Part shown: one piece after another, positions 3,856 to 53,526 of the stretch
Position numbering within the stretch: position 1 is the first letter of the stretch
Layout of the letters: every line of letters begins with the position of its first letter
Assembly (NCBI GenBank): GCA_049643885.1
Contig: JBARQV010000055.1
Span: 9,052-73,051, forward strand
Origin: Candidatus Omnitrophota bacterium
GTDB taxonomy: Bacteria; Omnitrophota; Gorgyraeia; Tantalellales; Tantalellaceae
Length of the DNA stretch: 64,000 bases
Reading direction: 5' to 3'
Program-made: the position numbers and the translations under genes
Notes under the pieces: model-generated
The model's input: the letters and a program-made list of their open reading frames with translations, nothing else
What the model was told of the DNA's origin: nothing
The model's database searches: none

Positions 3856-4389
3856 TTATATAAAAAAGAAAAACCTGAGCGCTCGTTCCAGTATACCGCC
3901 TTTGCCGGGACCGGACACTATGCCTTTTATCCTCGCATGGACGGGATTGGAACGGAATCTGATTATATAGCCCTCGGCAAACCTGAAAGGAGACTTTTCC
4001 TCTTCGAAAACCCTGTTGCACTGGTCCTGGAATCTTTCCCTGAACTCCGGATGTCTCATAATAATACTATACATCTCTAACGCGTCAAAGACACGTTCCG
4101 GCCCGGTCTCCGCAAGGAAATCATCAAGTTCGCCTGTTTCCCATAGTTTACCGTCCCGGTGGAGCTTGAAAGAAGTACCACCGTAAAGCTCCAGGAGCCC
4201 CCTCTTAAGAACAAAATGGAACATTGAACCATCCATGTCCCAATTATTCCATATATTATTCCTGTGCATGCAATCGATCAATTTCTTTCTGAGGTCCTTC
4301 GAAAGGAATAGGGACAACTCCCCGTTCTCTATTTTATCAGAGTGTCTTTGTGAGAAAAACTTCATCGTTAGGATAAGTATACACGTCAA
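3856..4389 (-). CDS. Hypothetical protein
   Basis: A 177-aa ORF tightly packed between pyrG and the receiver gene. I recognise no family. Confidence 0.4.
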   Translation of the reverse strand: MTCILILTMKFFSQRHSDKIENGELSLFLSKDLRKKLIDCMHRNNIWNNWDMDGSMFHFVLKRGLLELYGGTSFKLHRDGKLWETGELDDFLAETGPERVFDALEMYSIIMRHPEFRERFQDQCNRVFEEEKSPFRFAEGYIIRFRSNPVHARIKGIVSGPGKGGILERALRFFFFI

Positions 4390-5858
4390 TTATTCATATG
4401 GCAAGATGAATGCTGTTTGACCGCCGCTTTGACAAAATCCCGGAATAATGGATGGGCCCTATCGGGTTTTGATTGAAATTCCGGATGGAACTGGCAAGCC
4501 ACGAACCAGGGATGCCCTTTTAATTCGATTATTTCGACAAGATCACCTTTGGGGTGAACGCCGGAAAAGACCATCCCCTTCTTTTTCATAACATCCCGGT
4601 ATGAATTATTATATTCATACCTGTGCCTGTGGCGTTCCATCATTTTGTCTTTTCCGTACGCCGCAGAGCTTTTTGTCCCCTTTTTGATCTTACAGAGATA
4701 CTGCCCGAAGCGCATTGTCCCACCCTTTGCCTTTATTTTTTTCTGCTCCTCGAGAAGACTGATCACGGGATGTCTTGTCTTCTTATTGAACTCTGACGAA
4801 TTGGCCTTCTTCAATCCGCAGACGTTCCGGGCAAATTCGATCACCGCCGTCTGCATGCCGAGACATATCCCGAAATATGGGATGCCATTCTCCCTGGCAT
4901 ACGTTATCGCCTTTATCTTACCTTCGATCCCCCTGTAGCCGAAACCGCCGGGGACCAGGATCCCGTCGATCTCTTTAAATAATTTTTTGGCACTGGCCTT
5001 GGAAATACTTTCTGAGTCGACTCTCCTGATCTCGACTTTTGCGTTATTAGCTATACCTCCGTGTATCAAGGCTTCATATATCGATTTATACGCGTCCTGA
5101 AGAGTGATATATTTGCCTACGACCGCTATGTTCACCGTGCACTTGGGGGATCTTATGCGGTCGACGACTCTCTTTTTCCACCCGGCCAGGTCCTTTTTGC
5201 TGGATCTTAATTTTAATTGCCTGACAATAAGCTCGTCCAGCCCCTGCCTTCCAAAAACTACGGGAACTTCATAGATGCTCTTGACATCAAGAGCAAGGAT
5301 CACCTTTTCTTTGTCCACGTTGCAGAAAAGGGCTATCTTTTCCCGCGCCTCTTTGGATATAGGATGTTCCGACCTGCACAGAAGAATGTCGGGCTGTATA
5401 CCGATCTCCCTCAATTTACCTACGCTATGCTGAGTGGGCTTGGTCTTCATCTCCCCCGCGCTTTTTATATAAGGAATAAGCGTCAGGTGTATGAACAATG
5501 AGTTTCCTCTGCCCTCCTCCATGGAAAACTGCCTGATGGCCTCAAGAAAAGGGAGGCCTTCGATATCGCCCACGGTCCCCCCTATCTCGACTATTACGAG
5601 ATCGAGTTTTTTGCCCCTGGCCGCTCTGCGTATACCGTCCTTTATTTCGTCCGTTATATGGGGAATGACCTGGACGGTATTACCGAGATACTCGCCCTTC
5701 CTTTCCTTGCTGATGACCGAATGGTATACCTTGCCCGTGGTTATATTGTTATCGCTTCCCAGGTCGGCGTTCGTGAACCTTTCATAATGCCCGAGATCGA
5801 GATCGGTTTCAGCCCCGTCCCGTATTTTCCCTGGTCCGGCAATTCGATGGCCAGATCT
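4386..5858 (-). CDS. pyrG: CTP synthase, 5'-truncated (lacks about the first 60 codons and a start codon); possible pseudogene or assembly deletion
   Basis: The glutamine amidotransferase GICLGMQ motif and the synthetase GGTVGDIEGLPFLEAIRQ motif are present. Upstream translation in frame reads DGAETDLDLGHYERF...GEYLGNTVQVIPHITDEIK back to a TGA at 5859-5861 with no start codon. The P-loop GGVVSSLGKG region is absent, and a terminator hairpin sits at 5902-5937. Confidence 0.75.
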   Translation of the reverse strand, partial: RSGHRIAGPGKIRDGAETDLDLGHYERFTNADLGSDNNITTGKVYHSVISKERKGEYLGNTVQVIPHITDEIKDGIRRAARGKKLDLVIVEIGGTVGDIEGLPFLEAIRQFSMEEGRGNSLFIHLTLIPYIKSAGEMKTKPTQHSVGKLREIGIQPDILLCRSEHPISKEAREKIALFCNVDKEKVILALDVKSIYEVPVVFGRQGLDELIVRQLKLRSSKKDLAGWKKRVVDRIRSPKCTVNIAVVGKYITLQDAYKSIYEALIHGGIANNAKVEIRRVDSESISKASAKKLFKEIDGILVPGGFGYRGIEGKIKAITYARENGIPYFGICLGMQTAVIEFARNVCGLKKANSSEFNKKTRHPVISLLEEQKKIKAKGGTMRFGQYLCKIKKGTKSSAAYGKDKMMERHRHRYEYNNSYRDVMKKKGMVFSGVHPKGDLVEIIELKGHPWFVACQFHPEFQSKPDRAHPLFRDFVKAAVKQHSSCHMNN

Positions 5859-13957: not shown

Positions 13958-14063
13958 TATGTCATCCCGGAATCGTGCCGTAGGCACGATATCCGGGACC
14001 AATTAAAATTATTATGTGATCCCGGGTCTCCTTCGCCTTCGGCTCAGTCGCCCGGGATGACAT
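13958..14063. repeat. Two tandem palindromic repeat units (GTCATCCCGG-hairpin-CCGGGA family)
   Basis: Unit 1 is GTATGTCATCCCGGAATCGTGCCGTAGGCACGATATCCGGGA. Unit 2 is GTGATCCCGGGTCTCCTTCGCCTTCGGCTCAGTCGCCCGGGATGACAT, which is the reverse complement of the unit at 32198-32246 with one mismatch. Confidence 0.65.
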
Positions 14064-15083: not shown

Positions 15084-15362
15084 CTATTCTTCCTCCACAC
15101 TCTTATGCGTGTGGTATCCATTCCCTGCACGGAAGTATAGGGTGCTAACCGCGTCTTTGAGCTCTTTTAGGGCTTTGAGTGTATCCGCAGCTTCTTCTCT
15201 TTCGACCTTGCCTATAGCGAACCCGGCGTGAACAAGGACATAATCCCCTTCCCTGACGCCGCTCAAAACGCCGAGAGACACTTCCTTAAACACGCCTCCA
15301 AAATCCACTTTTGCCGTGTTTTTATTTACGCTTTTAACTTTTGCAGGAACTGCTAAGCACAT
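15084..15362 (-). CDS. hypC: [NiFe]-hydrogenase maturation protein HypC
   Basis: The N-terminal MCLAVPAKV (essential Cys2) and its roughly 90-aa size. Confidence 0.85.
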   Translation of the reverse strand: MCLAVPAKVKSVNKNTAKVDFGGVFKEVSLGVLSGVREGDYVLVHAGFAIGKVEREEAADTLKALKELKDAVSTLYFRAGNGYHTHKSVEEE

Positions 15363-16392
15363 GATATTGTCCTAACGCGATATTCAGGTCGTTGACGGGA
15401 ACAGACCTATTAATGAAAACATTAAATCCTTCCCGGGCCAGATCTTCTGTAACTTTTTTTCTTAAAAATTTATTCTGAAAAACTCCCCCGCTCAAGGCCA
15501 CGTCCGTGACCTTCGCCTTTTTCGACAGGGCCTTAACGGTTTTGACTGCGATCTCGGACATGGAATTATGGAATTTTGTCGCTACTTCTTCCTTCTTCTT
15601 TTTCCTTTTCACATCACCGGCCATACCCCGGAACAGGCCTTTAACATCTATAATATAACACTCTCCGTCTCTTATTGTTTCAAATCCATAGCTTTCTTCC
15701 AGATCGTCCCTGCACATCGATTCAAGCTTTATCGGCCCTTCCGCTTCATAAGACGCGTAAGTGCAGATCCCCAAAAGGGCCGCCGCGGCGTCAAAAAGGC
15801 GCCCCGCGCTTGACGTCAAAGGCGAATTTATATTCCTTGTCATCATCTCAAAAACAAGTTTTTTATCGCTCTCTGGAACATCTTTTATAAAGGAACTGCC
15901 CTCTTCCCCTAATATACTCAATACCATGCGCCAGGGCTGGCTTACGACCTTGTCGCCGCCGGGCATCTTCCTGTACTTCAGGTAAGCCGCCCTTTCGAAA
16001 CTATCGCCTCTGGCGATAAGGAACTCACCGCCCCAAATATTACCGTCTGCCCCATACCCTGTCCCGTCAAAAGAAACGCCGATAACCGGTCCCTTCAGGT
16101 CAAATTCGCGCATCACGCTCGCTATATGAGCGTGGTGGTGCTGAACGGGCACGACATCTTTGAAGGATCCTTTCGCAAATTTTGTCGAGAAATACCCGGG
16201 ATGAAGATCGCAGGCGACGATATCCGGTTTTGCCTTCTTTACAAGCTTGCGGACCTCTTTTTTGAAGAGTTCATAGTTCTGGACATCGCTTAAGTCTCCG
16301 ATATCCGGACCGGGATACAGAGAATCCCCTTTTGCCAGGAGAAACCTGTTCTTTATATCCGCTCCGGTTGCAAAAATCGTTCTATTTTTCAT
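15334..16392 (-). CDS. hypF: HypF-like carbamoyltransferase, Kae1/YgjD-like C-terminal domain only (no acylphosphatase, Zn-finger or YrdC domains)
   Basis: A 352-aa protein with the HHHAH metal motif, GGEFL and GGVFQN. It aligns to roughly residues 400-750 of full-length HypF. The ORF begins right at the domain boundary. Confidence 0.75.
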   Translation of the reverse strand: MKNRTIFATGADIKNRFLLAKGDSLYPGPDIGDLSDVQNYELFKKEVRKLVKKAKPDIVACDLHPGYFSTKFAKGSFKDVVPVQHHHAHIASVMREFDLKGPVIGVSFDGTGYGADGNIWGGEFLIARGDSFERAAYLKYRKMPGGDKVVSQPWRMVLSILGEEGSSFIKDVPESDKKLVFEMMTRNINSPLTSSAGRLFDAAAALLGICTYASYEAEGPIKLESMCRDDLEESYGFETIRDGECYIIDVKGLFRGMAGDVKRKKKKEEVATKFHNSMSEIAVKTVKALSKKAKVTDVALSGGVFQNKFLRKKVTEDLAREGFNVFINRSVPVNDLNIALGQYHVLSSSCKS

Positions 16393-16404
16393 ATTGCGTT
16401 AAAG

Positions 16405-16506
16405 GGACCGGTTGGGAGGGTGTTCCGTGCTCAAACAGTTCGAAAAAAAGCGACCTAAAATCGCTTTTTTTCGAAAACTCGCACTGAACACCCTCCCAAC
16501 CGGTCC
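16405..16506. repeat. 102-nt near-perfect palindrome (21-bp perfect outer arms and 13-bp inner arms)
   Basis: GGACCGGTTGGGAGGGTGTTC...CGAAAAAAAGCGA-cctaaaa-TCGCTTTTTTTCG...GAACACCCTCCCAACCGGTCC. It fills the whole hypA-like/hypF intergenic space. Confidence 0.7.
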
Positions 16507-16510
16507 TTTC

Positions 16511-16753
16511 TTACTCTATATCAAAAGATAACACTTGCACGATCGTTCCGGGAAAAAACGTGATATCAAGTTCCGCGTTCTCAAGGACCGTGCCCTTAGC
16601 CAGGACTTTAAACGTCTCTTTAAAAGATTCCTCTTTTACGCCTGTCAGCTCCCCGACTTTTAACTTCACCGTGGCAACACTCTTTGCCCCTTCTTTCTCG
16701 GCATGTTCCGCTATCCCTTTTATTATTGGCTCGATCAAATGGGTCTCATGCAT
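16511..16753 (-). CDS. hypA: HypA-like nickel-binding domain protein lacking the C-terminal zinc finger
   Basis: The N-terminal MHE nickel-binding motif (MHETHLIEPIIKG...), an 80-aa length and no cysteines. Canonical HypA is about 113 aa with CxxC-x12-CxxC. Confidence 0.55.
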   Translation of the reverse strand: MHETHLIEPIIKGIAEHAEKEGAKSVATVKLKVGELTGVKEESFKETFKVLAKGTVLENAELDITFFPGTIVQVLSFDIE

Positions 16754-17204
16754 TTTTCGTCTCCTTTATTTTATCCGTGATCTCCGATATCGCGTTTTTA
16801 ATGCTTTCCGACATCTCTTCACCGAAAGAAACATTTTCGGGCTGGACAGCCAACATGTAAATACCGGCCTTTGTTTCTTTCTCCAGAAATTCCAAAAATA
16901 AGTTCGGCGAAAGGTCATGCGTAGTAAGACCGGTTTTGGCTATCTCTTCCTTTTTCAGGAACGCATATTCGCCGGGTTTAAGGTCAAGATGTGCCGCATC
17001 GGCTATTACAACAGTATCGGGGTCTTCTTTGATTATTTTGCCGGTATAATTTTCAGGCGCACTGCCGGCGTCGATACATGTAAGATCTGTTTCAGCCTTC
17101 AGTTTCTCGATAAGGGCCGGGCCGAAAGCGTCATCGCCGCGCAAAACATTACCGATGCCTACAAAGACAACTTTCCCCTTTAATATCTTCTTAAATGTAT
17201 CCAT
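16746..17204 (-). CDS. Hydrogenase maturation endopeptidase (HycI/HyaD family)
   Basis: The VVFVGIGNVLRGDDAFG motif typical of the large-subunit C-terminal-processing proteases. Confidence 0.8.
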   Translation of the reverse strand: MDTFKKILKGKVVFVGIGNVLRGDDAFGPALIEKLKAETDLTCIDAGSAPENYTGKIIKEDPDTVVIADAAHLDLKPGEYAFLKKEEIAKTGLTTHDLSPNLFLEFLEKETKAGIYMLAVQPENVSFGEEMSESIKNAISEITDKIKETKNA

Positions 17205-17210
17205 AGAAAT

Positions 17211-17250
17211 ATGTCATCCCGGATGAGCCCAAAGGGCTCAATCCGGGATC
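17211..17250. repeat. Palindromic repeat unit (GTCATCCCGG-hairpin-CCGGGATC family)
   Basis: ATGTCATCCCGGATGAGCCCAAAGGGCTCAATCCGGGATC. It is the reverse complement of the unit at 18652-18692 apart from a single A/G difference in the loop (CCCAAAGGG versus CCCGAAGGG). Confidence 0.65.
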
Positions 17251-17268
17251 AAATAAAAGCAATAATCC

Positions 17269-17938: not shown

Positions 17939-18274
17939 CTATATTTCGCCCTCTTTGTCTTCTTTATACCTGTCGACGACGCTTCCTTCCCAGAGCTTGA
18001 CCCCTGCCCTGTGCGCACCCCTGGCCACGGCATGCGCCGCGACAGGAGCGGTCAGGAGAATGAACAATATACACAATAAAGATTTAAATCCCGCCGATGT
18101 AAAACCGACAATGAGAAACGTTCCGAAAAGTATGCTGCATGTCCCTAAAGTAACACTTTTCGTCGCCGCCTGAAGACGATTATAAACATCGGGGAGCCTC
18201 ACCAGACCGAGACACCCGAAAAAGTCAAACGCCAGTCCAACTACTATGAAAATAAGACCTATCTTCTCAATCAT
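17939..18274 (-). CDS. Mrp antiporter subunit G-like (MnhG/MbhC-like)
   Basis: The LGLVRLPDVYNRLQAATKSVTLG motif characteristic of MrpG/PhaG. Confidence 0.7.
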   Translation of the reverse strand: MIEKIGLIFIVVGLAFDFFGCLGLVRLPDVYNRLQAATKSVTLGTCSILFGTFLIVGFTSAGFKSLLCILFILLTAPVAAHAVARGAHRAGVKLWEGSVVDRYKEDKEGEI

Positions 18275-18635
18275 CGAAACTCTTTCCCTCCAGATATTTT
18301 GAAAGCGCCAGTGTGCTTATGAAACTCTGAAGCGCCCACGCTATCCCTATGTCAATATACCAGGACCTGCGGGTAGTAATGGTCAGCACCGCGCACAGGC
18401 CCACGATCAATATCCCGAGAATATCTATGGCCACGATCCTGTCAGCACCGGTAGGCCCTTTCCATATCCGGTAAAGACACATCAACGCGCCAAGTGTCAA
18501 TATATAAAGCGCCCTTCCGAAGAAACCGACCAGCGGCAGGTCCGGGTAAAACAGGAACGGAAAAGGCTTTATCAGTATCCTCGTGATGATCGCGCCTAAT
18601 ATGATCGCGCCTATGATCCACCTTATCATTTTCAT
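18267..18635 (-). CDS. Mrp antiporter subunit F-like (MnhF/MbhB-like)
   Basis: A small 3-TM protein with the GPTGADRIVAID segment typical of MrpF. Confidence 0.6.
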   Translation of the reverse strand: MKMIRWIIGAIILGAIITRILIKPFPFLFYPDLPLVGFFGRALYILTLGALMCLYRIWKGPTGADRIVAIDILGILIVGLCAVLTITTRRSWYIDIGIAWALQSFISTLALSKYLEGKSFDD

Positions 18636-18651
18636 GATTACATCCTTATTC

Positions 18652-18692
18652 GATCCCGGATTGAGCCCTTCGGGCTCATCCGGGATGACACA
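18652..18692. repeat. Palindromic repeat unit (inverted copy of the 17211-17250 unit)
   Basis: GATCCCGGATTGAGCCCTTCGGGCTCATCCGGGATGACACAT. Confidence 0.65.
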
Positions 18693-19193
18693 TTATTCAA
18701 AAATTTTGGACAGTATTTCCTCGAACCTTTTAATAATTATTTTTGTAGCGGCCTCGGTATCTTTATCTTTTACATCGATCCAGTGGACATACAAAAAACC
18801 GTTGTCCCTGTCCACGTCCACGCTCATCGTCCCCGGCGTAAGAGTTATAGAATTCGCCAGAAAGGTAAGTCCCGTATCAGTCTTCAGTTCCGTCTTCACT
18901 TTGACGATCCCCGGATTTATGGGAAGCTTCGGGTGCAATACGCGATAAGCCACGTCGATATTCGCCTTGAAGCACTCCCACAAAAACACCGGAACATACC
19001 AGAAAATAAAATAAAACCATCGATGGGGATGGCTTAGTTTCAGGGGCTCCTGTATAAAAAAGTCACCCGTTATAAAAGCCACAAAAGCCGCTATAAATAC
19101 ACCGACGACAAGATGCTGCCAGTCAGGCATCCAGTTCAAAAAGCACCATACCACGTAAGCCAATATGAATAATATTATCCTGCTTTTCATCAC
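18693..19193 (-). CDS. Mrp antiporter subunit E-like (MnhE/MbhA-like)
   Basis: A 166-aa membrane protein with the LTPGTMSVDV motif of MnhE. Confidence 0.6.
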   Translation of the reverse strand: MMKSRIILFILAYVVWCFLNWMPDWQHLVVGVFIAAFVAFITGDFFIQEPLKLSHPHRWFYFIFWYVPVFLWECFKANIDVAYRVLHPKLPINPGIVKVKTELKTDTGLTFLANSITLTPGTMSVDVDRDNGFLYVHWIDVKDKDTEAATKIIIKRFEEILSKIFE

Positions 19194-20698
19194 CCGATCC
19201 CCTTAAACACTATCACGGCGTATTTGGTGCCTTCTAAAAGGACGTCCGTAGCGCGCTCCAGAAAAAGCTGGTTCACGCCCGCGAGTAGAAGAACGCCTCC
19301 TACCAGGCAAATAAGCGCGAGCACGCCCATTGAAAGCCTCATAAAAATTGGGACTTCTTTTACCTGCCCGCATCTTTCCTTTAACTTGTCGTAGAAAGCG
19401 TATTTCATCACCTTCATGAAAGAGGCCAAAGTCAATACGCTGGCCAAAACCGCCCAGAAGGCGTACCCATATCTTCCCGCCTGGACAGCCGCGATAATAA
19501 TTATCAACTTGCTCCAGAAACCGTTAAAAGGCGGGATCCCGGCGATCGACATCGACGCTACCAGGCAGGTCGAACCTGTCACAGGCATTTTCTGGGACAA
19601 GCCGCCCATTTTCTGGAGATCACGCGTTCCCGTTGAGTATTCGAGCGCCCCGGAATTCAAAAAGAGGAGCGATTTAAAAATAGAGTGATTGAAAAGATGG
19701 AACAGCCCACCTAGTATCCCGAGCGGCGTTCCCAAGCCGATGCCCAGTATGACATATCCTATCTGGCTTATGGAGTGATACGCGAGAAGACGCTTAAAAT
19801 CCCACTGCCCGATAGCCAGGCACACTCCCACGACCATGGACAAAGCCCCAAGAAACAAAAAGATCTCCAAAACCTTGGGGGTCATACCGAACACGTTAAA
19901 GAAGATCCTGCACAAGGTATAAATACCGAGCGATTTTATTATGACTCCCGAAAGCATGGCCGATATAGGCGCCGGGGCTGAAGGGTGAGCGTCAGGCAGC
20001 CAGGCATGGAACGGGACAAGCGCCGCCTTCAGGCCGAACCCCATGATAAAAAGTACACTTACCATGAGGATAATATTCCCCCCTCCTTTTTGGGCCAGTA
20101 TAGAAGCCATGTCCGCCATGTTCAACGTCGAAGTATAACCGTAAAGAAGGACTATGCCTAAAAGGACAAAAAGAGAGCCGACGGTGCTCATAATGGCGTA
20201 CTTAAAGGCCGCTTCAAGCTCGTGTTTTTCAGTCCCGAAAGCGACCAGCGCGTAACTCGCCACGGACGCTATTTCCAGGAACACAAAAAGATTGAATATA
20301 TCCCCGGTTATAATGACACCGTTCATCCCTGCCAGCATGAGGAGGAACAGGCTATAGAACTTCCATTTGGAGGTATATTTTTTCATGTAATCTATGGAAA
20401 AGACCGAAATACAGAACGCTACCAGATTGACCGTTACCAGCATGAACGAGGTCAGGCCGTCAAGCACCATGGCTATACCGAAAGGAGGTTTCCATGCGCC
20501 GACTCCGTACACAAGAGTTCCGTATTTGTTATATATGAAAATAGCGGCGATCGAAAGCAAAAGCGAACCCAGTGTCGACAGGTTCCCCATAAAATCCGGA
20601 AACCATTTCAGCCGTTTTCCGCCCAGGGTTACAAGAAAAGCACCGGCAAGCGGGATAACCGTAAATAAAGGAATTATATTAGCTGCTTCTACTATCAT
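19190..20698 (-). CDS. Proton-translocating antiporter-like subunit (MrpD/NuoN family)
   Basis: A 502-aa polytopic protein with the NuoL/M/N-family core (WLPDAHPSAPAPISA...). Confidence 0.85.
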   Translation of the reverse strand: MIVEAANIIPLFTVIPLAGAFLVTLGGKRLKWFPDFMGNLSTLGSLLLSIAAIFIYNKYGTLVYGVGAWKPPFGIAMVLDGLTSFMLVTVNLVAFCISVFSIDYMKKYTSKWKFYSLFLLMLAGMNGVIITGDIFNLFVFLEIASVASYALVAFGTEKHELEAAFKYAIMSTVGSLFVLLGIVLLYGYTSTLNMADMASILAQKGGGNIILMVSVLFIMGFGLKAALVPFHAWLPDAHPSAPAPISAMLSGVIIKSLGIYTLCRIFFNVFGMTPKVLEIFLFLGALSMVVGVCLAIGQWDFKRLLAYHSISQIGYVILGIGLGTPLGILGGLFHLFNHSIFKSLLFLNSGALEYSTGTRDLQKMGGLSQKMPVTGSTCLVASMSIAGIPPFNGFWSKLIIIIAAVQAGRYGYAFWAVLASVLTLASFMKVMKYAFYDKLKERCGQVKEVPIFMRLSMGVLALICLVGGVLLLAGVNQLFLERATDVLLEGTKYAVIVFKGIG

Positions 20699-23679: not shown

Positions 23680-24856
23680 CCCAGTCTTTCCTTATTTTTT
23701 CCGTTTTCTCCTGTGACAGCCTTACCAGATCATGTCCGGTGTACAGCTTTTTCCCCTTTGTATTACGGACAGCCATCCTCTCCGTGCAGCAGTAACACGG
23801 GTCTATCGCCGCGAGGATTATCGTAGCGTCGGATATCGTCTCTCCCTTGACAGTCGCTTTATATGTAGGAAGATTCATGAACGTAGGCGCTCTAACCTTG
23901 TGGCGCACCGGACTGTTCGTCCCGTCACTCCTTACATAATGGAAAGTTTCTCCTCTCGGCGCTTCATGAGTGCCGATGCCCTCCCCGGGAGGTATGTTCT
24001 TGATCTTCGCGTCGATCTCACCTTCCGGTAGATTCAAAAGGCATTCTTTCATTATCTTGTATGACTCGAACATCTCCAGTATTCTTACTACCACTTTATC
24101 AAAAACATCACCATTATGAGTGACTATCATGTCCCATTCCACCTTATCATAAGCCGCGTAAGGTGAATCTTTTCTGACGTCCCGGGCAACTCCGGAAGCC
24201 CGTGAAGTCGGTCCCAGAGCGGAAAAGTTTATCGATTCTTCTTTCGTTAGAATGCCTATTCCCTTTGTCCGGGCGTGAAGCACAGGGTCATCCACTACCG
24301 CTTTTTTCAGCATGTTCAGTGTGGGAATTATGGAATCAATTTTCTTGATCACCACAGGTATGTCTTCCTTCTTTATATCTCTTCTTACCCCTCCCGGCTT
24401 GAACATGGCGTAGTTATTCCTGTTCCCGGAAAGTATTTCCATAACATCCAATATCTCTTCCCTCAATTTCCAGGCCCACATATAGACAGTGTTGTATCCC
24501 AAAAAATGTCCCGCGAGGCCAAGCCACAATAGGTGGGAATGTATCCTTTCTCCTTCACCTATTATGGTCCTTATGTATTTAGCCCTGTCGGGGACTTCCA
24601 TGGGTATGATGTCCTCCACCGCCTGGGCATAAGCAAATGGATGGCTTGTGGAGCATATGCCGCATATTCTTTCGATCACGAATGTCGACTGGTCGAAAGT
24701 CTTCATCTCGGATAATTTCTCAATACCCCTGTGGTTGTACCCGACCTGGACATCGATATCGACGACCCTCTCACCCTCAACAGTAAGAGTGAAAAACTCA
24801 GGTTCTTCCTGAAGCGGGTGGTACGGTCCTATGGGAACTATTGTCTTCGCCATCAA
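23666..24856 (-). CDS. Group-4 [NiFe]-hydrogenase large (catalytic) subunit, NuoD-like
   Basis: The N-terminal L1 motif RICGICSTSH and the C-terminal L2 motif DPCYCCTER, that is, both Ni-Fe-ligating Cys pairs, in a 396-aa protein. Confidence 0.85.
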   Translation of the reverse strand: MMAKTIVPIGPYHPLQEEPEFFTLTVEGERVVDIDVQVGYNHRGIEKLSEMKTFDQSTFVIERICGICSTSHPFAYAQAVEDIIPMEVPDRAKYIRTIIGEGERIHSHLLWLGLAGHFLGYNTVYMWAWKLREEILDVMEILSGNRNNYAMFKPGGVRRDIKKEDIPVVIKKIDSIIPTLNMLKKAVVDDPVLHARTKGIGILTKEESINFSALGPTSRASGVARDVRKDSPYAAYDKVEWDMIVTHNGDVFDKVVVRILEMFESYKIMKECLLNLPEGEIDAKIKNIPPGEGIGTHEAPRGETFHYVRSDGTNSPVRHKVRAPTFMNLPTYKATVKGETISDATIILAAIDPCYCCTERMAVRNTKGKKLYTGHDLVRLSQEKTEKIRKDWDAKR

Positions 24857-25326
24857 ACACCTCTATCCCTTATTGCGCCCTCATCCCACTCCTTATAATC
24901 GCACCTCAAAGGATAGACACCTTCCGGCCATTCGTCAGGAAGAAGGAGTCTTCTCATATCAGGATGACCCTTGAAACTGATCCCCAGCATTTCGTTCATC
25001 TCTCTTTCTATCCAGTTTGCCGCCTCAAAAACAGGAGCAAGTGAATCGATCTCCAATCTATCTTTGGGCAGCTTTACTCTCAAAGATATCTGAAGATTTA
25101 TTTCTTCGATGATAAAATGATAAAGGATCTCCATGTGGAACCTGACATCCACGCCGGTCGCGATATTGAACCTCGCTCCCATATCTTTAAAAAGATAACT
25201 GCCGATCTTGACTATCGATTCAGGTTTTATCTCGATATAGACTCTCTTTTGGGACTTATCGAAAATATCGATAATATCGTCTTTGAATTTGCTTTTAAGA
25301 TTCTTTAAAACTTCATTCCTTGTCAT
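24853..25326 (-). CDS. NuoC-like (30 kDa) hydrogenase subunit
   Basis: ANWIEREMNEMLGISFKGHPDMRRLLL, the NuoC/EchD signature. Confidence 0.8.
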   Translation of the reverse strand: MTRNEVLKNLKSKFKDDIIDIFDKSQKRVYIEIKPESIVKIGSYLFKDMGARFNIATGVDVRFHMEILYHFIIEEINLQISLRVKLPKDRLEIDSLAPVFEAANWIEREMNEMLGISFKGHPDMRRLLLPDEWPEGVYPLRCDYKEWDEGAIRDRGV

Positions 25327-25361
25327 AATTCACTTCTCTGCTTGAGTATCCATCATCGATT

Positions 25362-25444
25362 GGGCGGGTCCTGTCGCTCAGTGCCCTGCGCGCCTCCGCG
25401 CCACTGGCTTGTGCGGTGCTCGGACACTGTCGCGCCACCCGCCC
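25362..25444 (+). repeat. GC-rich 83-nt structured repeat, copy A (GGGCGGGT...ACCCGCCC)
   Basis: It is 97-98% identical to the copies at 44575-44656 (+) and 30116-30198 (-). It has 8-bp terminal inverted repeats and an internal CAGTGTCC/GGACACTG stem. GC is about 70%, against roughly 45-50% for the flanks. Confidence 0.7.
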
Positions 25445-25485
25445 GCCGCTGACCGCAGACCGCTATGCCCTCTGCGCTCTGCTCT

Positions 25486-25911
25486 TTACTTCTTCCCTCT
25501 AACCTTCTCAATGAGCTTCACTACCCCCGCGATGATAGCTTCCGGCTTCGGGGGGCAGCCGGGAATATAAACGTCTACCGGGATGATCTTATCCAGCGGC
25601 ACGGGACAATTATAACTGTGGATGAACATGCCGCGGGACATGGAACATTCCCCTACAGCCACCACAAGCAAAGGTTTTGGCGCTTGTTCATATAATCTTT
25701 TCAATCTCTCCACGGACTTCCTATTACAAGAACCCGTGATCAGGAGCACATCTGCGTGTTTAATACTTCCGACAAGAAGCATCCCGAACCTCTCAATGTC
25801 GAACCTGGGGGTAAGACAATCGAGTATCTCGATATCGCAGTTATTACAACTACCGGTAGACAGGTGAAACACCCATGGAGACTTCAAAAGTGCTTTTAAT
25901 TTCATACTCAT
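25486..25911 (-). CDS. NuoB-like [NiFe]-hydrogenase small subunit (proximal 4Fe-4S)
   Basis: GSCNNCDIEI and VDVYIPGCPPKPE motifs. Confidence 0.85.
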   Translation of the reverse strand: MSMKLKALLKSPWVFHLSTGSCNNCDIEILDCLTPRFDIERFGMLLVGSIKHADVLLITGSCNRKSVERLKRLYEQAPKPLLVVAVGECSMSRGMFIHSYNCPVPLDKIIPVDVYIPGCPPKPEAIIAGVVKLIEKVRGKK

Positions 25912-29917: not shown

Positions 29918-29935
29918 TTGTGATAATCTTCACAG
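29918..29935. promoter_or_regulatory. Candidate Rex operator (TTGTGA-N6-TCACAG)
   Basis: A near-consensus Rex box (TTGTGAAnnnnTTCACAA) 8-25 nt upstream of the rex ATG, at the head of the hydrogenase operon. Confidence 0.5.
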
Positions 29936-30115
29936 ACTTCGTTCCGATTTTCACGAATATAATACTTTCGCAATAAAAAGTCAAGAGTTTTTTGGGGTGC
30001 TGGATGCTTGTCGTTAGTCGGTCGTCGGTCGTATTTCAAAGGACAGAGTGCGGAGCGGAGATATCAGATAGCATAGCGCAAAGAGCATCGCGGTTTGTGG
30101 TGTGCGGTCTTCGAT

Positions 30116-30198
30116 GGGCGGGTGGCGCGACGGTGTCCGAGCACCGCACAAGCCATTGGCGCGGAGGCGCGCAGGACACTGAGCGACAGGACCCGCCC
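30116..30198 (-). repeat. GC-rich 83-nt structured repeat, copy B (inverted orientation)
   Basis: It is the reverse complement of the 44575-44656 copy with 2 mismatches. About 40 nt of flanking sequence show weaker similarity to the copy-A flank. Confidence 0.7.
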
Positions 30199-30301
30199 AC
30201 TGGTAAACAGCCCTCTGCCTCGTTCTTCGAAAGTTGGAAAAATACCGTTAAAAAAATTGGTTGGGAAAGATTTTATTGTTTTTGCAAAGCTCAATGCTCG
30301 A

Positions 30302-32149
30302 CTAATGGCGCCTGCGCTTGCCGAGAAGGACTATGTCACGCAGGGCTTTCTCGTCCTTCGCTCTCATCCATTTTTTCTCGAAATGCGTATCCTGCACTAT
30401 TTGTGCGATAGCCGAAAGCGCGCGAAGGTGAAAATTGCGCTCGTCCTTCGTCCCCGCAATGACGAAGACGGTCCTCACTTTGCCTTCCGTTTCCGGAAAT
30501 ACTATGCCCCCCTTGCAGCGCACGAGGAGCATAACGAAATCCTTCTTCCCGTCTATTATAATGTGAGGTATGGCAAGCCCCGGAGCGAGAACGGTGCTGC
30601 TTTCCTTCTCCCTTTCAAGGAATTTATTGTAAATTACATCGGCGCTCGTTGAGAGCCTTTCCGAGAGCTTTTCCGAGGCGAGCCTGAAGAACTCGTCGGC
30701 GTTCATGGGTCCCGGAATATCGAGGACGATCGCCTCTTCCACGGATCTGTCGAACCTGTCCTTGACTATCTCATCCCTCTCCCTTATTATCTCTTTAAGC
30801 TCCTCTTCAAGCGTGACATCCACCAGCTCGCGGGCGGTCAGTCTTTCTATAAGATGTAAAAGCGCGAAATCTCTTCTTGCCCTTTCCCTGCCGTAAAACC
30901 AGTAAACCAGAAGCCCGCACGCGAAAAGCGTCGATCCCAGAAAAAGCGCCGCTTTACCCATGCCGACCACGAGCTGCCAGCACCCGAAGATCCCGATTAT
31001 CTGCGTCCAGGGATAAAAAGGCGAGCGGAAACGTGGCTGGTAGTTCTGGACCCTGCTCTCCCTCATGATGATGACGCAGAGCCCGGAAAATATGAAAGTA
31101 AATATAAGTACGGTCGAGGCAATTTTCACAAGTATACTGAGCTTAAGGAAGACCGCGATTATCATTAAGAGGCCGGTAAAGACGATCGAAATATGCGGAG
31201 TCTTGAACTTGGGATGTACGTTAGAGAAAAACTCAGGAAGCAGTCTGTCCCTGCTGAGGGCCAGGGGATACCTTGAAGCTGACATGATGCCCGCGTTGGC
31301 GGTCGAGATAAAAGCGAGCATCGCCGCAAAGGCCATTGCGAGCACTCCCCATTCTCCCATGAACACGCCCGCGCCGGCGGATATAGGAGTAAGGGAATTA
31401 TCAAGCGCCCCGCCCGGAAGTACACCGGTAGTGATAAACACGACCAGGGTATAAAGCACTCCCACCGCTGTAAGTGAAAGTATCATTCCCAGGGGCACCG
31501 TCCTCGCCGGATTTTTTACTTCTTCAGCAATGCTGGCGACTTTCAGAAGCCCTCCGTATGATATAAAGACAAATCCCGCCGTTGAAAAAACAGCGGCAAG
31601 GCCGTTGGGCATAAAGGGCTTAAGATTGGAATATTTTACGGCCGGCCAGCCTTTGAAAATATAAAAAACAAGTAAGCCGATAAGAACAATTACTATCACC
31701 GTCTGCACCTTTCCCGCTCCCTTGATCCCTATGTAATTCAAAATAACGAAAAAAGCGCAAAAAGCCAGGGCGATAAGCCGCGGATCCACACCAAGCATAA
31801 GATGGGTAAAGGCCGCCATTCCTACGAGGGCAAAAGAGCTTTTCAGGGAAACCGAAAGCCAGGTAAGCAAGCCGTCTACTGTCGCGATAGCGGGTCCCAT
31901 GCTTCGGGCGACGTAAAAATAAGTGCCTCCCGCTTTGGGCATTGCGGAGACAAGTTCGGCTTGGCTCAGCATACCCATCACGGCCAAAAGCCCCGCAAGA
32001 AAATAAGAAGCGATGACTGCGGGTCCGGCTTTGGCGTGGGCCAAGCCGGGAAGGACAAACAGCCCGGAACTGATCATCGCCCCGGAGGCTATGCAGAAAA
32101 CATCAAGAAGTCCAAGCTCCCGTTTAAGCGTAGAATTTTTTCTTCGCAT
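30302..32149 (-). CDS. APC-family amino-acid permease fused to a C-terminal PTS EIIA(Ntr/fructose)-type domain
   Basis: About 430 aa of 12-TM permease followed by a cytoplasmic domain with GLAIPHIII...VRTVFVIAGTKDE (EIIA-2 fold). Confidence 0.7.
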   Translation of the reverse strand: MRRKNSTLKRELGLLDVFCIASGAMISSGLFVLPGLAHAKAGPAVIASYFLAGLLAVMGMLSQAELVSAMPKAGGTYFYVARSMGPAIATVDGLLTWLSVSLKSSFALVGMAAFTHLMLGVDPRLIALAFCAFFVILNYIGIKGAGKVQTVIVIVLIGLLVFYIFKGWPAVKYSNLKPFMPNGLAAVFSTAGFVFISYGGLLKVASIAEEVKNPARTVPLGMILSLTAVGVLYTLVVFITTGVLPGGALDNSLTPISAGAGVFMGEWGVLAMAFAAMLAFISTANAGIMSASRYPLALSRDRLLPEFFSNVHPKFKTPHISIVFTGLLMIIAVFLKLSILVKIASTVLIFTFIFSGLCVIIMRESRVQNYQPRFRSPFYPWTQIIGIFGCWQLVVGMGKAALFLGSTLFACGLLVYWFYGRERARRDFALLHLIERLTARELVDVTLEEELKEIIRERDEIVKDRFDRSVEEAIVLDIPGPMNADEFFRLASEKLSERLSTSADVIYNKFLEREKESSTVLAPGLAIPHIIIDGKKDFVMLLVRCKGGIVFPETEGKVRTVFVIAGTKDERNFHLRALSAIAQIVQDTHFEKKWMRAKDEKALRDIVLLGKRRRH

Positions 32150-32197: not shown

Positions 32198-32302
32198 TAT
32201 GTCATCCCGGGCGACTGAGCCAAAGGCGAAGGAGACCCGGGATCACACAAAATTTTTATTTGATCCCGGATATTTCGCTTCGCGAAATTCCGGGATAACA
32301 TA
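32198..32302. repeat. Two tandem palindromic repeat units (GTCATCCCGG family)
   Basis: TATGTCATCCCGGGCGACTGAGCCAAAGGCGAAGGAGACCCGGGATCAC is the inverse of the 14016-14063 unit. It is followed by GATCCCGGATATTTCGCTTCGCGAAATTCCGGGATAACAT. Confidence 0.65.
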
Positions 32303-42126: not shown

Positions 42127-42412
42127 CTATCCTGTCGCTCCTTTTTTACCTCTAAATCTAAATCTGTACCGAATCACGTCCGTTATTATCCCCAACGCCA
42201 TTTAGGGTGTTTTTATATCGGACGGAATAAATAAAAAAGCCCGGGTAAAAAATACCCAGGCTTAAAAAATCAGGATTTTTCAAGTATAACAAAGAAAACA
42301 AACCATAGATCCATTTTTCCCCCCTGAAAAATGGAATGTATTGTATATGCGCTAAACAAGTATATTGTATTACACATGTTTACCATGTCAACATAATAAG
42401 CGAAAAGTCAGT

Positions 42413-42441
42413 TTGCCAAATCCTGCTGGTTAAGTTATAAT
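42413..42441 (+). promoter_or_regulatory. Sigma-70-like promoter (TTGCCA-N17-TATAAT) for the GT2 gene
   Basis: Near-consensus -35 and -10 elements with a 17-nt spacer. An AGGTGA ribosome-binding site lies 4 nt before the ATG at 42463. Confidence 0.5.
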
Positions 42442-42462
42442 ACAGCAAATCCCAGGTGAAAT

Positions 42463-43197: not shown

Positions 43198-44559
43198 TCA
43201 CTCCATTTTGATGAGTTCGAAATCAGATTTATCAAAAAGAATGGAATATTTTACCTTAGCGAAGGCATTTATGCTTCTTTTGTCGGTGAAGATATACCGG
43301 CCTTTTTGTGTGATCACAGTTTCAAAAGCCTCTTCCCCTACGATATTCTCGCCCACATCCCCAAGATAAAACTGAAGACCCGGATCGCTTATGTCATAAA
43401 GATACAGTTTTTCGCCCTTTGGAACAGTCTCCTTGACCTTCACGGCTATTTGCTTTATGCCGGGAGAATAATCGAGATCCATGATATTCTTATCAATAGA
43501 AAGATACGAAAGTGAGGCGAAAGCCAGCATAGAAACGATCGCTATTGTACGCTTTTTAAGAAGCCTGCTCGCTCCCCAACCGGTCATTATCGAAAGCGCC
43601 GGGTATATCGGCATCATGTACCAGTGAAGCTTGGTCCGGACCAGGCTGAAAAGTACCAGCACCGTGCCCGCCCATATAACCGGTATAAGATGTTCTTTTT
43701 CCCCGTTCCGAAATATCCTCCATATCAAATACGGCGCCAGGACAAGACCTACCCCCGCCCAGGGCCGGCCTTTATTCGGTACCACCCCGATGTATGTCAA
43801 TAGATCCCCGGTATGGCCTTCGACCGCCTGTGTCGTCCGGATAAAAAGATGCTTGATAATATAGTCTTTAACAAAATCATCGCCGTAATGAGAAAAAGCA
43901 AGCCAGTGCCACCAGCCCAGGACAAGCAAAGTGACCGCAAGGCCGGCAACAAGCGCCGGCTCTTTCAACATTTTATATTTTCCGGTAAAAACCAGATACA
44001 GACCAAGTATGATCGGGATAAGGAACGACCCCAACCCCTTCACAAGAAACGCGCAGGTAAAAGCTAAGCATGAGAAAAAAAGATAGATCTTCTTTTCTTC
44101 GCCGAGTTTGAACATAAAAAGTGAAAGAATTATAAAAAAAGTAAGGGGCATGTCAAGCATACCCACTCTTGCCGACCAGATAAAATGCCAGGTGGAAAGT
44201 AGGACCAGAGCCGAAGTAAAAGCGGCGTTCCTGGAATATAACCTGTTCGCGAAAAGGTACGTCAAAAGAACCGCGCCTATCCCGCAAAGAGCCGAAAAAA
44301 GCCTTACTGAAAATTCACTTACCCCGAAAAGCATATAGAAAAGCGCGGTGACCCACATGTAAAGAGGCGGCTTATCGCTCCACGGTTTGTCCGCCCAAGA
44401 AAGATCGATCCAATTCCCGGTCTTCAGGATCTCGCGTGAAACTCCCCCGTACAGGCCTTCGTCCCAGGAAAGAAGGCTTCCCGTGCCGAGATTCCAGAGA
44501 AGCAATATCGCGGCAATAACGAAGAGTATCAGTAAGTCGATTCGTGTTCTATTACCCAT
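43198..44559 (-). CDS. GT-C glycosyltransferase, ArnT/PMT family (GT39/GT83)
   Basis: The first-loop motif SWDEGLYGG and a polytopic 453-aa membrane protein. Confidence 0.75.
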   Translation of the reverse strand: MGNRTRIDLLILFVIAAILLLWNLGTGSLLSWDEGLYGGVSREILKTGNWIDLSWADKPWSDKPPLYMWVTALFYMLFGVSEFSVRLFSALCGIGAVLLTYLFANRLYSRNAAFTSALVLLSTWHFIWSARVGMLDMPLTFFIILSLFMFKLGEEKKIYLFFSCLAFTCAFLVKGLGSFLIPIILGLYLVFTGKYKMLKEPALVAGLAVTLLVLGWWHWLAFSHYGDDFVKDYIIKHLFIRTTQAVEGHTGDLLTYIGVVPNKGRPWAGVGLVLAPYLIWRIFRNGEKEHLIPVIWAGTVLVLFSLVRTKLHWYMMPIYPALSIMTGWGASRLLKKRTIAIVSMLAFASLSYLSIDKNIMDLDYSPGIKQIAVKVKETVPKGEKLYLYDISDPGLQFYLGDVGENIVGEEAFETVITQKGRYIFTDKRSINAFAKVKYSILFDKSDFELIKME

Positions 44560-44574
44560 TATCCACTATCCAAT

Positions 44575-44656
44575 GGGCGGGTCCTGTCGCTCAGTGTCCT
44601 GCGCGCCTCCGCGCCAATGGCTTGTGCGGTGCTCGGACACTGTCGCACCACCCGCC
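44575..44656 (+). repeat. GC-rich 83-nt structured repeat, copy C
   Basis: It differs from copy A (25362-25444) by 3 mismatches. Confidence 0.7.
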
Positions 44657-44689
44657 CTGGCTAATCCAAATTCCAACATCCATTATCTA

Positions 44690-45235
44690 TTATCTATTAT
44701 CTATCTCTTCCATGTATTTCGTCGGAACTTCCTTTACAAGAAAAAGGTTCCCTTCTTTATAAAACTCTATCCCATCGGCAAAAGCTTGTCCAGCCATAAT
44801 TTTCAAAATGACCGGTTCGGAGTCGTGCCGCAACCCCACCGCGTAGGCATCCTTTTCATTCATGCTCAAATGGACGAACTGGCGGTCCATCGATCTCAGC
44901 CCGCCGGCAAGTATATTGTCCATACTGTCCCCGGATGTCCCGTGGTATAAAAATTCCGGCGGCTCAACGTTCCCCGACACCGGCCGGACCTCTACTGAAT
45001 GGCCGTAAGTGGCCCGTATTTTCTTCCGCGATATCCCAAAGCGGCCTTTGGGATCCTTTTCAACAAGGGTGAAAAGCTCCTCTTCCTGGAACTTCTTGAA
45101 TCTTCCCTTAAGAACGGCAAGGACTTTCTCAAGATCGGCAAAACCATTCCCGTCAAGTTCGAGACCATACTTGCCGGGATCATGCCGCAGGATATAGGAC
45201 AAAAACTTGCTCAGTCTTATACTGTATTCAGTCAT
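44690..45235 (-). CDS. kptA: RNA 2'-phosphotransferase (Tpt1/KptA family)
   Basis: LSKFLSYILRHDPGKYGLELDGNGFADLEKV and HGTS motifs. The start is placed at MTEYSIRLSK. A heptamer repeat overlaps the stop. Confidence 0.8.
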   Translation of the reverse strand: MTEYSIRLSKFLSYILRHDPGKYGLELDGNGFADLEKVLAVLKGRFKKFQEEELFTLVEKDPKGRFGISRKKIRATYGHSVEVRPVSGNVEPPEFLYHGTSGDSMDNILAGGLRSMDRQFVHLSMNEKDAYAVGLRHDSEPVILKIMAGQAFADGIEFYKEGNLFLVKEVPTKYMEEIDNR

Positions 45236-53275: not shown

Positions 53276-53351
53276 GGCTCCCCGGGTTGGACTCGAACCA
53301 ACAACCTACTGGTTAACAGCCAGTCGCTACTACCATTGAGCTACCGGGGAG
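53276..53351 (-). tRNA. tRNA-Asn (anticodon GUU)
   Basis: Manual cloverleaf: acceptor TCCCCGG/CCGGGGA, discriminator G, CCA. The anticodon stem is ACTGG/CCAGT with loop CUGUUAA. The T-arm is GTTGG-TTCGAGT-CCAAC. Confidence 0.85.
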
Positions 53352-53433: not shown

Positions 53434-53526
53434 ATACTGGAATGAACATCCGGGCAAAAACAATAAAATCAAAGGACCCCATTTACAAATTTTATTGTTT
53501 TTGCAGAAATATAAAGGAGTACCGCT

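Follow-up and report, generated by a model that had tools for sequence, protein, structure and literature searches.

Among the small dispersed repeats described in bacteria, the NIMEs of Neisseria are mosaic intergenic elements that combine dRS3 units with other motifs. The BIMEs of E. coli are mosaic intergenic elements as well, composed of REP units plus other motifs (PMC2817692). The REP unit itself is a GT(A/G)G head placed directly before a GC-rich palindrome of 20-35 nt, and two such units in inverted orientation form a REPIN (PMC2817692, PMC3337134). The GI REPIN of Pseudomonas fluorescens SBW25 is 89 bp in length and is mobilised by a RAYT (PMC3116915, PMC3337134). Bacterial MITEs are represented by ERIC/IRU of about 127 bp, Correia/CREE of 104-157 bp, and RUP of 107 bp (PMC3184786).

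Here we describe a GC-rich element of 83 nt in the genome of a Candidatus Omnitrophota MAG, found in a window of 64 kb, which is the whole stretch of DNA that was analysed. The element is best explained, with a probability of roughly 0.7, as a dispersed mobile-type repeat of the REP/REPIN/MITE kind, whose effects through RNA are incidental. A degenerate 83-nt pattern has exactly three matches in the window and none in 100 dinucleotide shuffles, which bears out the three near-identical copies that the first-pass annotation had reported. They are listed here with the bases that they carry at the variable positions.

25362 to 25444, plus strand: core copy 1 (C23, C43, T67, G73), in the spacer between mbhJ and mbhK, antisense to the operon mRNA
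30116 to 30198, minus strand: core copy 2 (T23, A43, C67, G73), between the permease-EIIA stop codon and the rex promoter, in the same orientation as transcription
44575 to 44657, plus strand: core copy 3 (T23, A43, T67, A73), between KptA/Tpt1 and PMT_2, antisense to the mRNA

The copies vary only at positions 23 (C/T), 43 (C/A), 67 (T/C) and 73 (G/A), and any two of them differ at three positions or fewer. Against the consensus (T23, A/C43, T67, G73), each copy carries one or two private substitutions, in a star-like pattern. Position 43 of copy 3, which is window position 44617 and lies in the loop, is polymorphic between assemblies. The window and GCA_049644745.1 have A there, whereas the ENA assembly, GCA_049645405.1 and GCA_049644805.1 have C, as does copy 1 (L097, L100, L113). 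This polymorphism is compatible with gene conversion between copies, or with a polymorphic source copy.

Structurally, the ends of the core are sharp in all copies and carry terminal inverted repeats of 8 nt, GGGCGGGT and ACCCGCCC, which are perfect in all three, as had been noted before. The GC content of the copies is 72-76% against a window mean of 46.9% (z = 3.4-3.9, the top 0.1% of 83-nt windows), so the sharp contrast with the surroundings that was first remarked upon is real. The element has no coding capacity; it contains no transposase and is well within the size of a MITE (less than 500 bp). The open reading frame said to overlie copy 2 (29992-30411, plus strand) does exist mechanically as an open frame, and no public assembly calls it a gene. 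Likewise, when the six-frame translation of the core was compared with 5.8 billion protein clusters, no predicted protein was found to contain it, and no spurious reading frames were found over other copies.

In RNA folding, the whole 83-nt unit forms one long imperfect hairpin on either strand, with an energy of -43.6 to -48 kcal/mol and a z score of -2.4 to -4.8 across both strands. With DNA folding parameters, the outer and middle stems still form. The GCGC hairpin claimed earlier is present as GCGCG-CCTC-CGCGC, a local palindrome found in one arm only. The inner stem of the earlier description is real and pairs CAGTGTCC with GGACACTG over 8 bp; its ninth pair does not exist, as the base after GGACACTG is T and not A. 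A single mismatch falls in this stem in copy 1, and another in copy 2.

The copies are all intergenic, one of them between the NuoC-like and NuoB-like hydrogenase genes, as first stated, and the genes that flank them all lie on the minus strand. Copy 1 occupies a spacer of 159 nt between the NuoB-like mbhJ (25486-25911, minus strand) and the NuoC-like mbhK (24853-25326, minus strand), 35 nt upstream of the mbhK start codon. The host cluster encodes a group 4 [NiFe]-hydrogenase of the Mbh/Mrp type; HycI and Hyp genes follow downstream. Copy 2 is located between the stop codon of an amino-acid permease-EIIA gene (30302) and rex, the head gene of the Mbh cluster, upstream of a good sigma-70-type rex promoter, TTGACT-17-TATATT (29984-29956, minus strand). 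Copy 3 lies between the KptA/Tpt1 stop codon (44690) and the start of a PMT_2 glycosyltransferase gene (44559), 15 nt from the PMT_2 ATG. Copies 1 and 3, placed between co-oriented genes 130-159 nt apart, are probably co-transcribed with them. Copy 2, being upstream of the rex promoter, is probably transcribed only by read-through from the permease gene.

The neighbourhood holds several further features. A Rex-box-like palindrome, TGTGAAGATTATCACA, is found at 29919-29934 (minus strand), just downstream of the TTGACT-17-TATATT promoter and before rex. The position of rex at the head of the Mbh cluster, with this palindrome, suggests a putative autoregulated, redox-sensing control of the hydrogenase. 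The HypF homologue (15334-16392, minus strand) is a protein of 352 aa that consists of HypF_C domains without the acylphosphatase, zinc-finger or YrdC part. This short form is conserved, since the orthologue in an 84%-related lineage has 350 aa. Three tandem TAGATAA units mark the end of the KptA gene (44683-44703, minus strand), with the stop codon in the second unit. TGGAT pentamers are repeated to either side of core copy 3 and also beside copy 1. A tRNA gene is located at 53278-53350 (minus strand), and both ENA scaffold_66 and the Logan contig L093 end inside it. The DNA beyond the tRNA, from 53.5 to 64 kb, has a lower GC content, 39-45%, and is rich in genes for glycosyltransferases and polysaccharides; this part may represent a variable island at the tRNA.

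Comparison with relatives shows what these sites look like when empty. In the closest relative found (L111), which has about 91% nucleotide identity and belongs to the same 90% protein cluster, mbhJ and mbhK overlap by 4 nt (AAATGA), and the 156 nt at window positions 25327-25482 are missing entirely. The copy 1 site is likewise empty in a second relative (L112). Of 77 orthologous loci, mostly from Omnitrophota, about 60 have -7 to 25 nt between NuoB and NuoC, against 159 nt here. At the copy 2 site, about 300 nt (30000-30301) around the element have no counterpart in L008, in which the permease stop codon stands 6 nt from the conserved rex promoter region. At the copy 3 site, KptA and PMT_2 overlap by 8 nt in two more distant relatives (L114 and L115). 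Presence and absence at orthologous positions were thus seen at all three sites, always in comparisons between species, and no within-species empty site was seen. All three copies are insertions, placed in extra DNA that is specific to the lineage.

The mbhJ-mbhK junction carries other inserts elsewhere in the phylum. Unrelated palindromic or hairpin inserts of 45-243 nt occupy it in about ten other Omnitrophota genomes (L011, L012, L054, L057, L061, L062, L066, L069, L070, L086). Small repeats seem to land, or to be tolerated, at this junction repeatedly.

The number of copies was approached by direct search and through assemblies. Three copies were seen directly in about 82 kb of genome, all within 19.3 kb, with none in the other 63 kb or so. 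The latter includes about 18 kb beyond the window ends (about 9 kb on each side), where no further copy was found. A fuzzy search of the window for half-elements or extension modules gave no extra partial copies. The BLASTN comparison of the 83-mer with related Omnitrophota, which the first-pass annotation had proposed as a check, was run on 80 orthologous loci comprising 1.36 Mb, with blastn-short and with a covariance model built on the three copies, and no copy was found. Exact 23-mers had no match in GTDB species representatives, 20-mers had none in IMG/VR, and blastn gave none in plasmid and phage collections. The 20-mer scan of JGI metagenomes returned a single match (L007), a chance one with dissimilar flanks. 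On the explanation favoured here, the element has spread recently, inside a single Omnitrophota species-level lineage.

Within that lineage, at least five NCBI MAGs (GCA_0496...) contain the same DNA, as do the ENA assembly ERZ23498717 and Logan assemblies of at least four SRA runs. The MAGs include GCA_049644805.1, GCA_049644745.1, GCA_049645405.1, GCA_049645485.1 and GCA_049642145.1. The anomalous GC content and the contig breaks at the repeat would be in line with an assembly or contamination artefact. This explanation is effectively refuted, because the element stands at the same three loci in the MAGs, the ENA assembly and the SRA runs, with flanks particular to each locus, and every copy retains the SNPs of its own locus. 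The breaks carry information of their own. In Logan assemblies of different runs, contigs that enter copy 1 from the extension side stop after exactly 30 nt (L110), and others begin at position 52 of its reverse complement (L004-L006). At copy 3, contigs begin at a distance of 26 nt plus 5 flank bases from its end (L098, L099, L101). Among the three copies in the window, no 31-mer of copy 1 is shared, and neither are the relevant 31-mers of copy 3. The Logan assembly uses k = 31. The contigs break inside the element despite unique 31-mers, which implies that at least one or two further loci share those k-mers. Accordingly, the genome should hold at least one or two copies beyond the three, a figure deduced from k-mer break points and not from counting; for the genome-wide family proposed in the first-pass annotation, these break points are the sole sign of further copies.

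The core does not stand alone in its spacers. Beyond its ends, modules that the first-pass annotation had missed are shared by pairs of copies.

25445 to 25490, plus strand: 3' extension module of copy 1, which reaches the mbhJ stop codon and spans it
30069 to 30108, minus strand: 3' extension module of copy 2, with a 7-nt spacer ATCGAAG (30109-30115) adjoining the core
25347 to 25361, plus strand: 5' flank module of copy 1, TATCCATCATCGATT, direct repeat family D1
44560 to 44574, plus strand: 5' flank module of copy 3, TATCCACTATCCAAT, direct repeat family D1

The 3' extensions of copies 1 and 2 match at 35 of 46 positions (76%) with a 7-nt offset (P = 8e-13), and the 5' flanks of copies 1 and 3 at 11 of 15 (P = 1.3e-4). 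The shared modules are more diverged than the core, with 11 differences in 46 positions against 3 in 83 (Fisher p = 7e-4). Either the core entered related sequences that were already there, or it has been homogenised or selected; since it is better conserved than the modules, selection on the core is also possible.

Together with their extensions, copies 1 and 2 constitute an inverted repeat (I1, arms 25361-25490 and 30070-30199). These arms, 130 nt long and 85% complementary, flank a promoter-bearing segment, as would be expected if they were recombination sites that invert the 4.6-kb stretch from rex to mbhJ and thereby switch hydrogenase expression. We regard such a switch as highly improbable and have rejected it. 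All contigs that span the junctions, in every assembly, are collinear and keep the ancestral gene order, with no alternative arrangement on record, and the private substitutions remain bound to their own copy in all assemblies. Additionally, no recombinase gene lies nearby, and copy 3 does not fit the scheme.

None of the three copies has a direct repeat immediately next to its core ends. Possible target-site duplications are found at a greater distance.

25485 to 25493, minus strand: possible target-site duplication of copy 1, left, AGAAGTAAA, which contains the mbhJ stop codon
25329 to 25337, minus strand: possible target-site duplication of copy 1, right, AGAAGTGAA, which ends 2 nt upstream of the mbhK ATG
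44680 to 44687, minus strand: possible 8-nt duplication of copy 3, left, GATAATGG
44556 to 44563, minus strand: possible 8-nt duplication of copy 3, right, GATAATGG, which contains the PMT_2 ATG

The 9-nt sequence AGAAGT(A/G)AA brackets a block of 147 nt that holds core copy 1, and GATAATGG brackets a block of 116 nt at copy 3; the former is suggestive only, and neither pair is statistically compelling when taken alone. Within 80-nt flanks, a direct repeat of 7 nt or longer occurs at 39% of random sites. The bracketing repeats of copies 1 and 3 contain the ancestral stop/start junction, as expected for a duplication at overlapping genes. The bracketed blocks at these two copies have no inverted repeats at their ends and differ from one another. 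A model of one unit with a target duplication was rejected. The blocks that direct repeats delimit at the three sites measure 147, 109 and 116 nt, and their arms are not homologous; the block at copy 1 includes the 3' extension, whereas the one at copy 2 leaves it out.

The spacers that hold the core are mosaic, and two other repeat families occupy them. The first of these is made of hairpins of the form (TGTC)ATCCCGG...CCGGGAT(CA), with conserved ends and variable inner stem-loops, and is unrelated in sequence to the 83-nt core. The second, the third family of the window, is AT-rich and ends in GCAAAAACAATAAAATC.

13959-13999, 14017-14063, 17208-17256, 18646-18694, 32199-32250 and 32262-32302: ATCCCGG family
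30225-30291 (minus strand) and 53454-53505 in the window, and 16603-16816, 18086-18291 and 19445-19508 in the related locus L088: GCAAAAACAATAAAATC family

The ATCCCGG family has 5-6 copies in the window, often as adjacent pairs and in both orientations; strict matches number 5, against 0.02 in shuffles. Of 80 related loci, 9 have similar hairpins of the form ATCCC(C/G)G...C(C/G)GGGAT, and in L012 and L054 these occupy the mbhJ-mbhK gap. The GCAAAAACAATAAAATC family is built in L088 from units of about 200 nt that have inverted arms of about 48 nt and hold a terminator-like hairpin, GGGCG...CGCCCTTTTT, inside. In the window, it is represented by a half-copy just upstream of core copy 2 and by a perfect hairpin of 50 nt beside the tRNA. 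Logan contigs break inside both families. Separately, a 29-nt inverted repeat (16402-16430 and 16481-16509), 93% complementary with a 50-nt spacer, takes up the space between hypA and the hypF-like gene, and may be another palindromic insert.

The first-pass annotation had also offered a small structured RNA, acting as a processing or stability signal, and the evidence does not support it. One form of this idea is that the unit is a cis-acting RNA hairpin, held nearly invariant by selection, which would stabilise mRNA, serve as a processing site or decouple translation, with its mode of copying secondary. The hairpin is indeed very stable on both strands, copies 1 and 3 sit inside co-directional gene pairs at 35 and 15 nt from the following start codons, and conservation is far higher in the core than in the shared modules next to it. 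REP and ERIC elements, moreover, affect mRNA decay (PMC3184786). However, the orientation with respect to transcription is mixed, with copies 1 and 3 antisense and copy 2 sense (the plus strand of the element being arbitrary), and copy 2 lies upstream of the rex promoter, outside the operon. The 32 hairpin pairs show no double change, in a comparison of three sequences that has low power; two of the four substitutions break pairs, one alters a pair by wobble, and one falls in the loop. The element is missing in the relative of about 91% identity and in all others, whose genes simply overlap, and it matches no Rfam family. We therefore consider a selected cis-acting hairpin unlikely.

Another form of the idea is a family of trans-acting small RNA genes or self-cleaving ribozymes with their own promoters, which a GC-rich, structured and multi-copy element in an AT-richer genome could bring to mind. 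It is very unlikely. The Rfam check that had been proposed was run, and Rfam 15 over the window gave no match to the element, its sole hit being the tRNA at 53278-53350 (minus strand). At E <= 10, the region 25300-25520 gave three noise hits only on the two strands (E > 1), and no family, ribozymes included. No promoter or terminator consensus of its own was seen at any copy, no copy has a T-run or U-tract after it on either strand, and none is flagged by the terminator scan. The copies lie in mixed orientation inside transcribed spacers and show no covariation, and the family is not conserved beyond one species-level lineage. Mixed orientation and absence from the 91%-identical relative together leave the RNA-gene reading unsupported.

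Several other identities were considered and rejected. An intrinsic terminator does not agree with a GC-rich hairpin that has no U-tract, and a ribozyme or sRNA does not agree with the Rfam results. An attC site would carry GTTRRRY/RYYYAAC, which is missing; a CRISPR repeat would stand in an array, and there is none. For the template or variable repeat of a DGR, there is no reverse transcriptase, and the differences between copies are not adenine-specific.

The designation of a REP/MITE-like element, also from the first-pass annotation, is the one that the results favour. It is supported by near-identical copies with sharp ends, inverted repeats, a hairpin, and both orientations, and further by the empty sites in relatives and by independent assemblies that break inside the element. 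As a dispersed mobile-type repeat, the element would owe its copying to an enzyme that acts in trans and is encoded elsewhere in the genome. A candidate is a HUH/Y1 (RAYT-like) transposase that recognises hairpins in single-stranded DNA; another is a DDE transposase that makes target duplications of 8-9 bp. Gene conversion may help to keep the copies alike. Once transcribed, a copy would place a hairpin of -44 to -48 kcal/mol in the spacer, and such a hairpin could slow 3'-to-5' decay or uncouple the translation of genes that formerly overlapped. The effect of the element on expression is probably incidental.

Neither the window nor its 18 kb of flanks contains a transposase or RAYT gene, Y1_Tnp included, and the plasmid and phage collections hold nothing similar to a parent insertion sequence with the inverted repeats of the element. 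In a related MAG (GCA_046759285.1, L114), a Y1 transposase of 169 aa is encoded at 4156-4665 (minus strand). Its best model is NF047646, the REP-associated tyrosine transposase, at 76.8 bits, which is below the cutoff of 80, and the IS200 model gives 25 bits. The gene stands 0.8 kb from the orthologue of the copy 3 site, inserted between a GT2 gene and a 91-aa gene whose spacer is 336 nt in the window (42127-42462). It is flanked by AT-rich inverted repeats, TTGTACCGTTTGCAAG and GCAAACGGTACAA, which are unrelated to the 83-nt element. RAYT-type machinery is thus present in the clade, with nothing that ties it to the 83-nt element; in a REP/REPIN-RAYT system, the cognate RAYT is a single-copy gene with the repeat on its flanks.

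A more far-reaching reading, which we hold to be rather doubtful, is that the core is a maintained hairpin that works in either orientation. It would be kept 96-99% identical within decaying inserts by selection or by a domesticated RAYT-like conversion, and would uncouple or differentially stabilise the ancestrally overlapping mbhJ/mbhK and KptA/PMT_2. If true, it would amount to a host-beneficial REPIN-like system in uncultured Omnitrophota, with a new recognition sequence that has no GTAG head.

As a dispersed mobile-type repeat, the element is of interest in several respects. Small dispersed repeats are hardly described in Omnitrophota, a phylum known only from metagenomes, and this lineage packs at least three unrelated repeat families into short spacers. 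The repeats break short-read assemblies at predictable places, which can be useful for binning or finishing such genomes. Additionally, the insert turns overlapping, presumably translationally coupled hydrogenase genes into genes parted by a very stable hairpin. If it changes the stoichiometry of the subunits, the locus is a natural experiment on operon architecture.

Returning to the known systems, the element resembles REPINs in its similar size, its extragenic position, its GC-richness relative to the genome, its lineage-specific distribution, and the lack of a duplication abutting its ends. In all three copies, its complementary ends would form a hairpin in single-stranded nucleic acid, and a RAYT-like gene is found in a related genome (L114). 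It differs at the place of the head, where the 5' side reads TTGG, GTGG and ATGG and the 3' side reads GCGG, ATGG and CAGG, none of them GT(A/G)G. Without this head, and without a short palindrome in each arm, it falls outside the sequence definition of a REP. REPINs number tens to hundreds of copies per genome; here three are seen in about 82 kb, and at least one or two more would be expected from the break points. The spacers of REPINs vary (PMC3116915, PMC3337134), whereas the spacer between the arms of the element is as conserved as the arms.

With MITEs, the element shares small size, a non-coding nature, terminal inverted repeats and a long stem-loop. It is also like them in its location in transcribed intergenic spacers, in either orientation, with presence and absence across related genomes. 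The target duplications of MITEs, often TA, directly flank the inverted repeats (PMC3184786), whereas nothing abuts those of the element, and its candidate duplications of 8-9 nt bracket larger, non-identical blocks. The strict definition of a MITE therefore does not apply, since no duplication abuts the inverted repeats. In comparison with BIMEs and NIMEs, the element has no regularly alternating REP arrays, and its modules match no described BIME or NIME unit. It is like them in that the core is combined variably with other short repeat modules, namely the 5' module, the 3' extension, the GCAAAAACAATAAAATC family and ATCCCGG hairpins, which occupy the same spacers. The element fits this familiar class of small dispersed repeats, and beyond the points on assembly and operon architecture it opens no new question.
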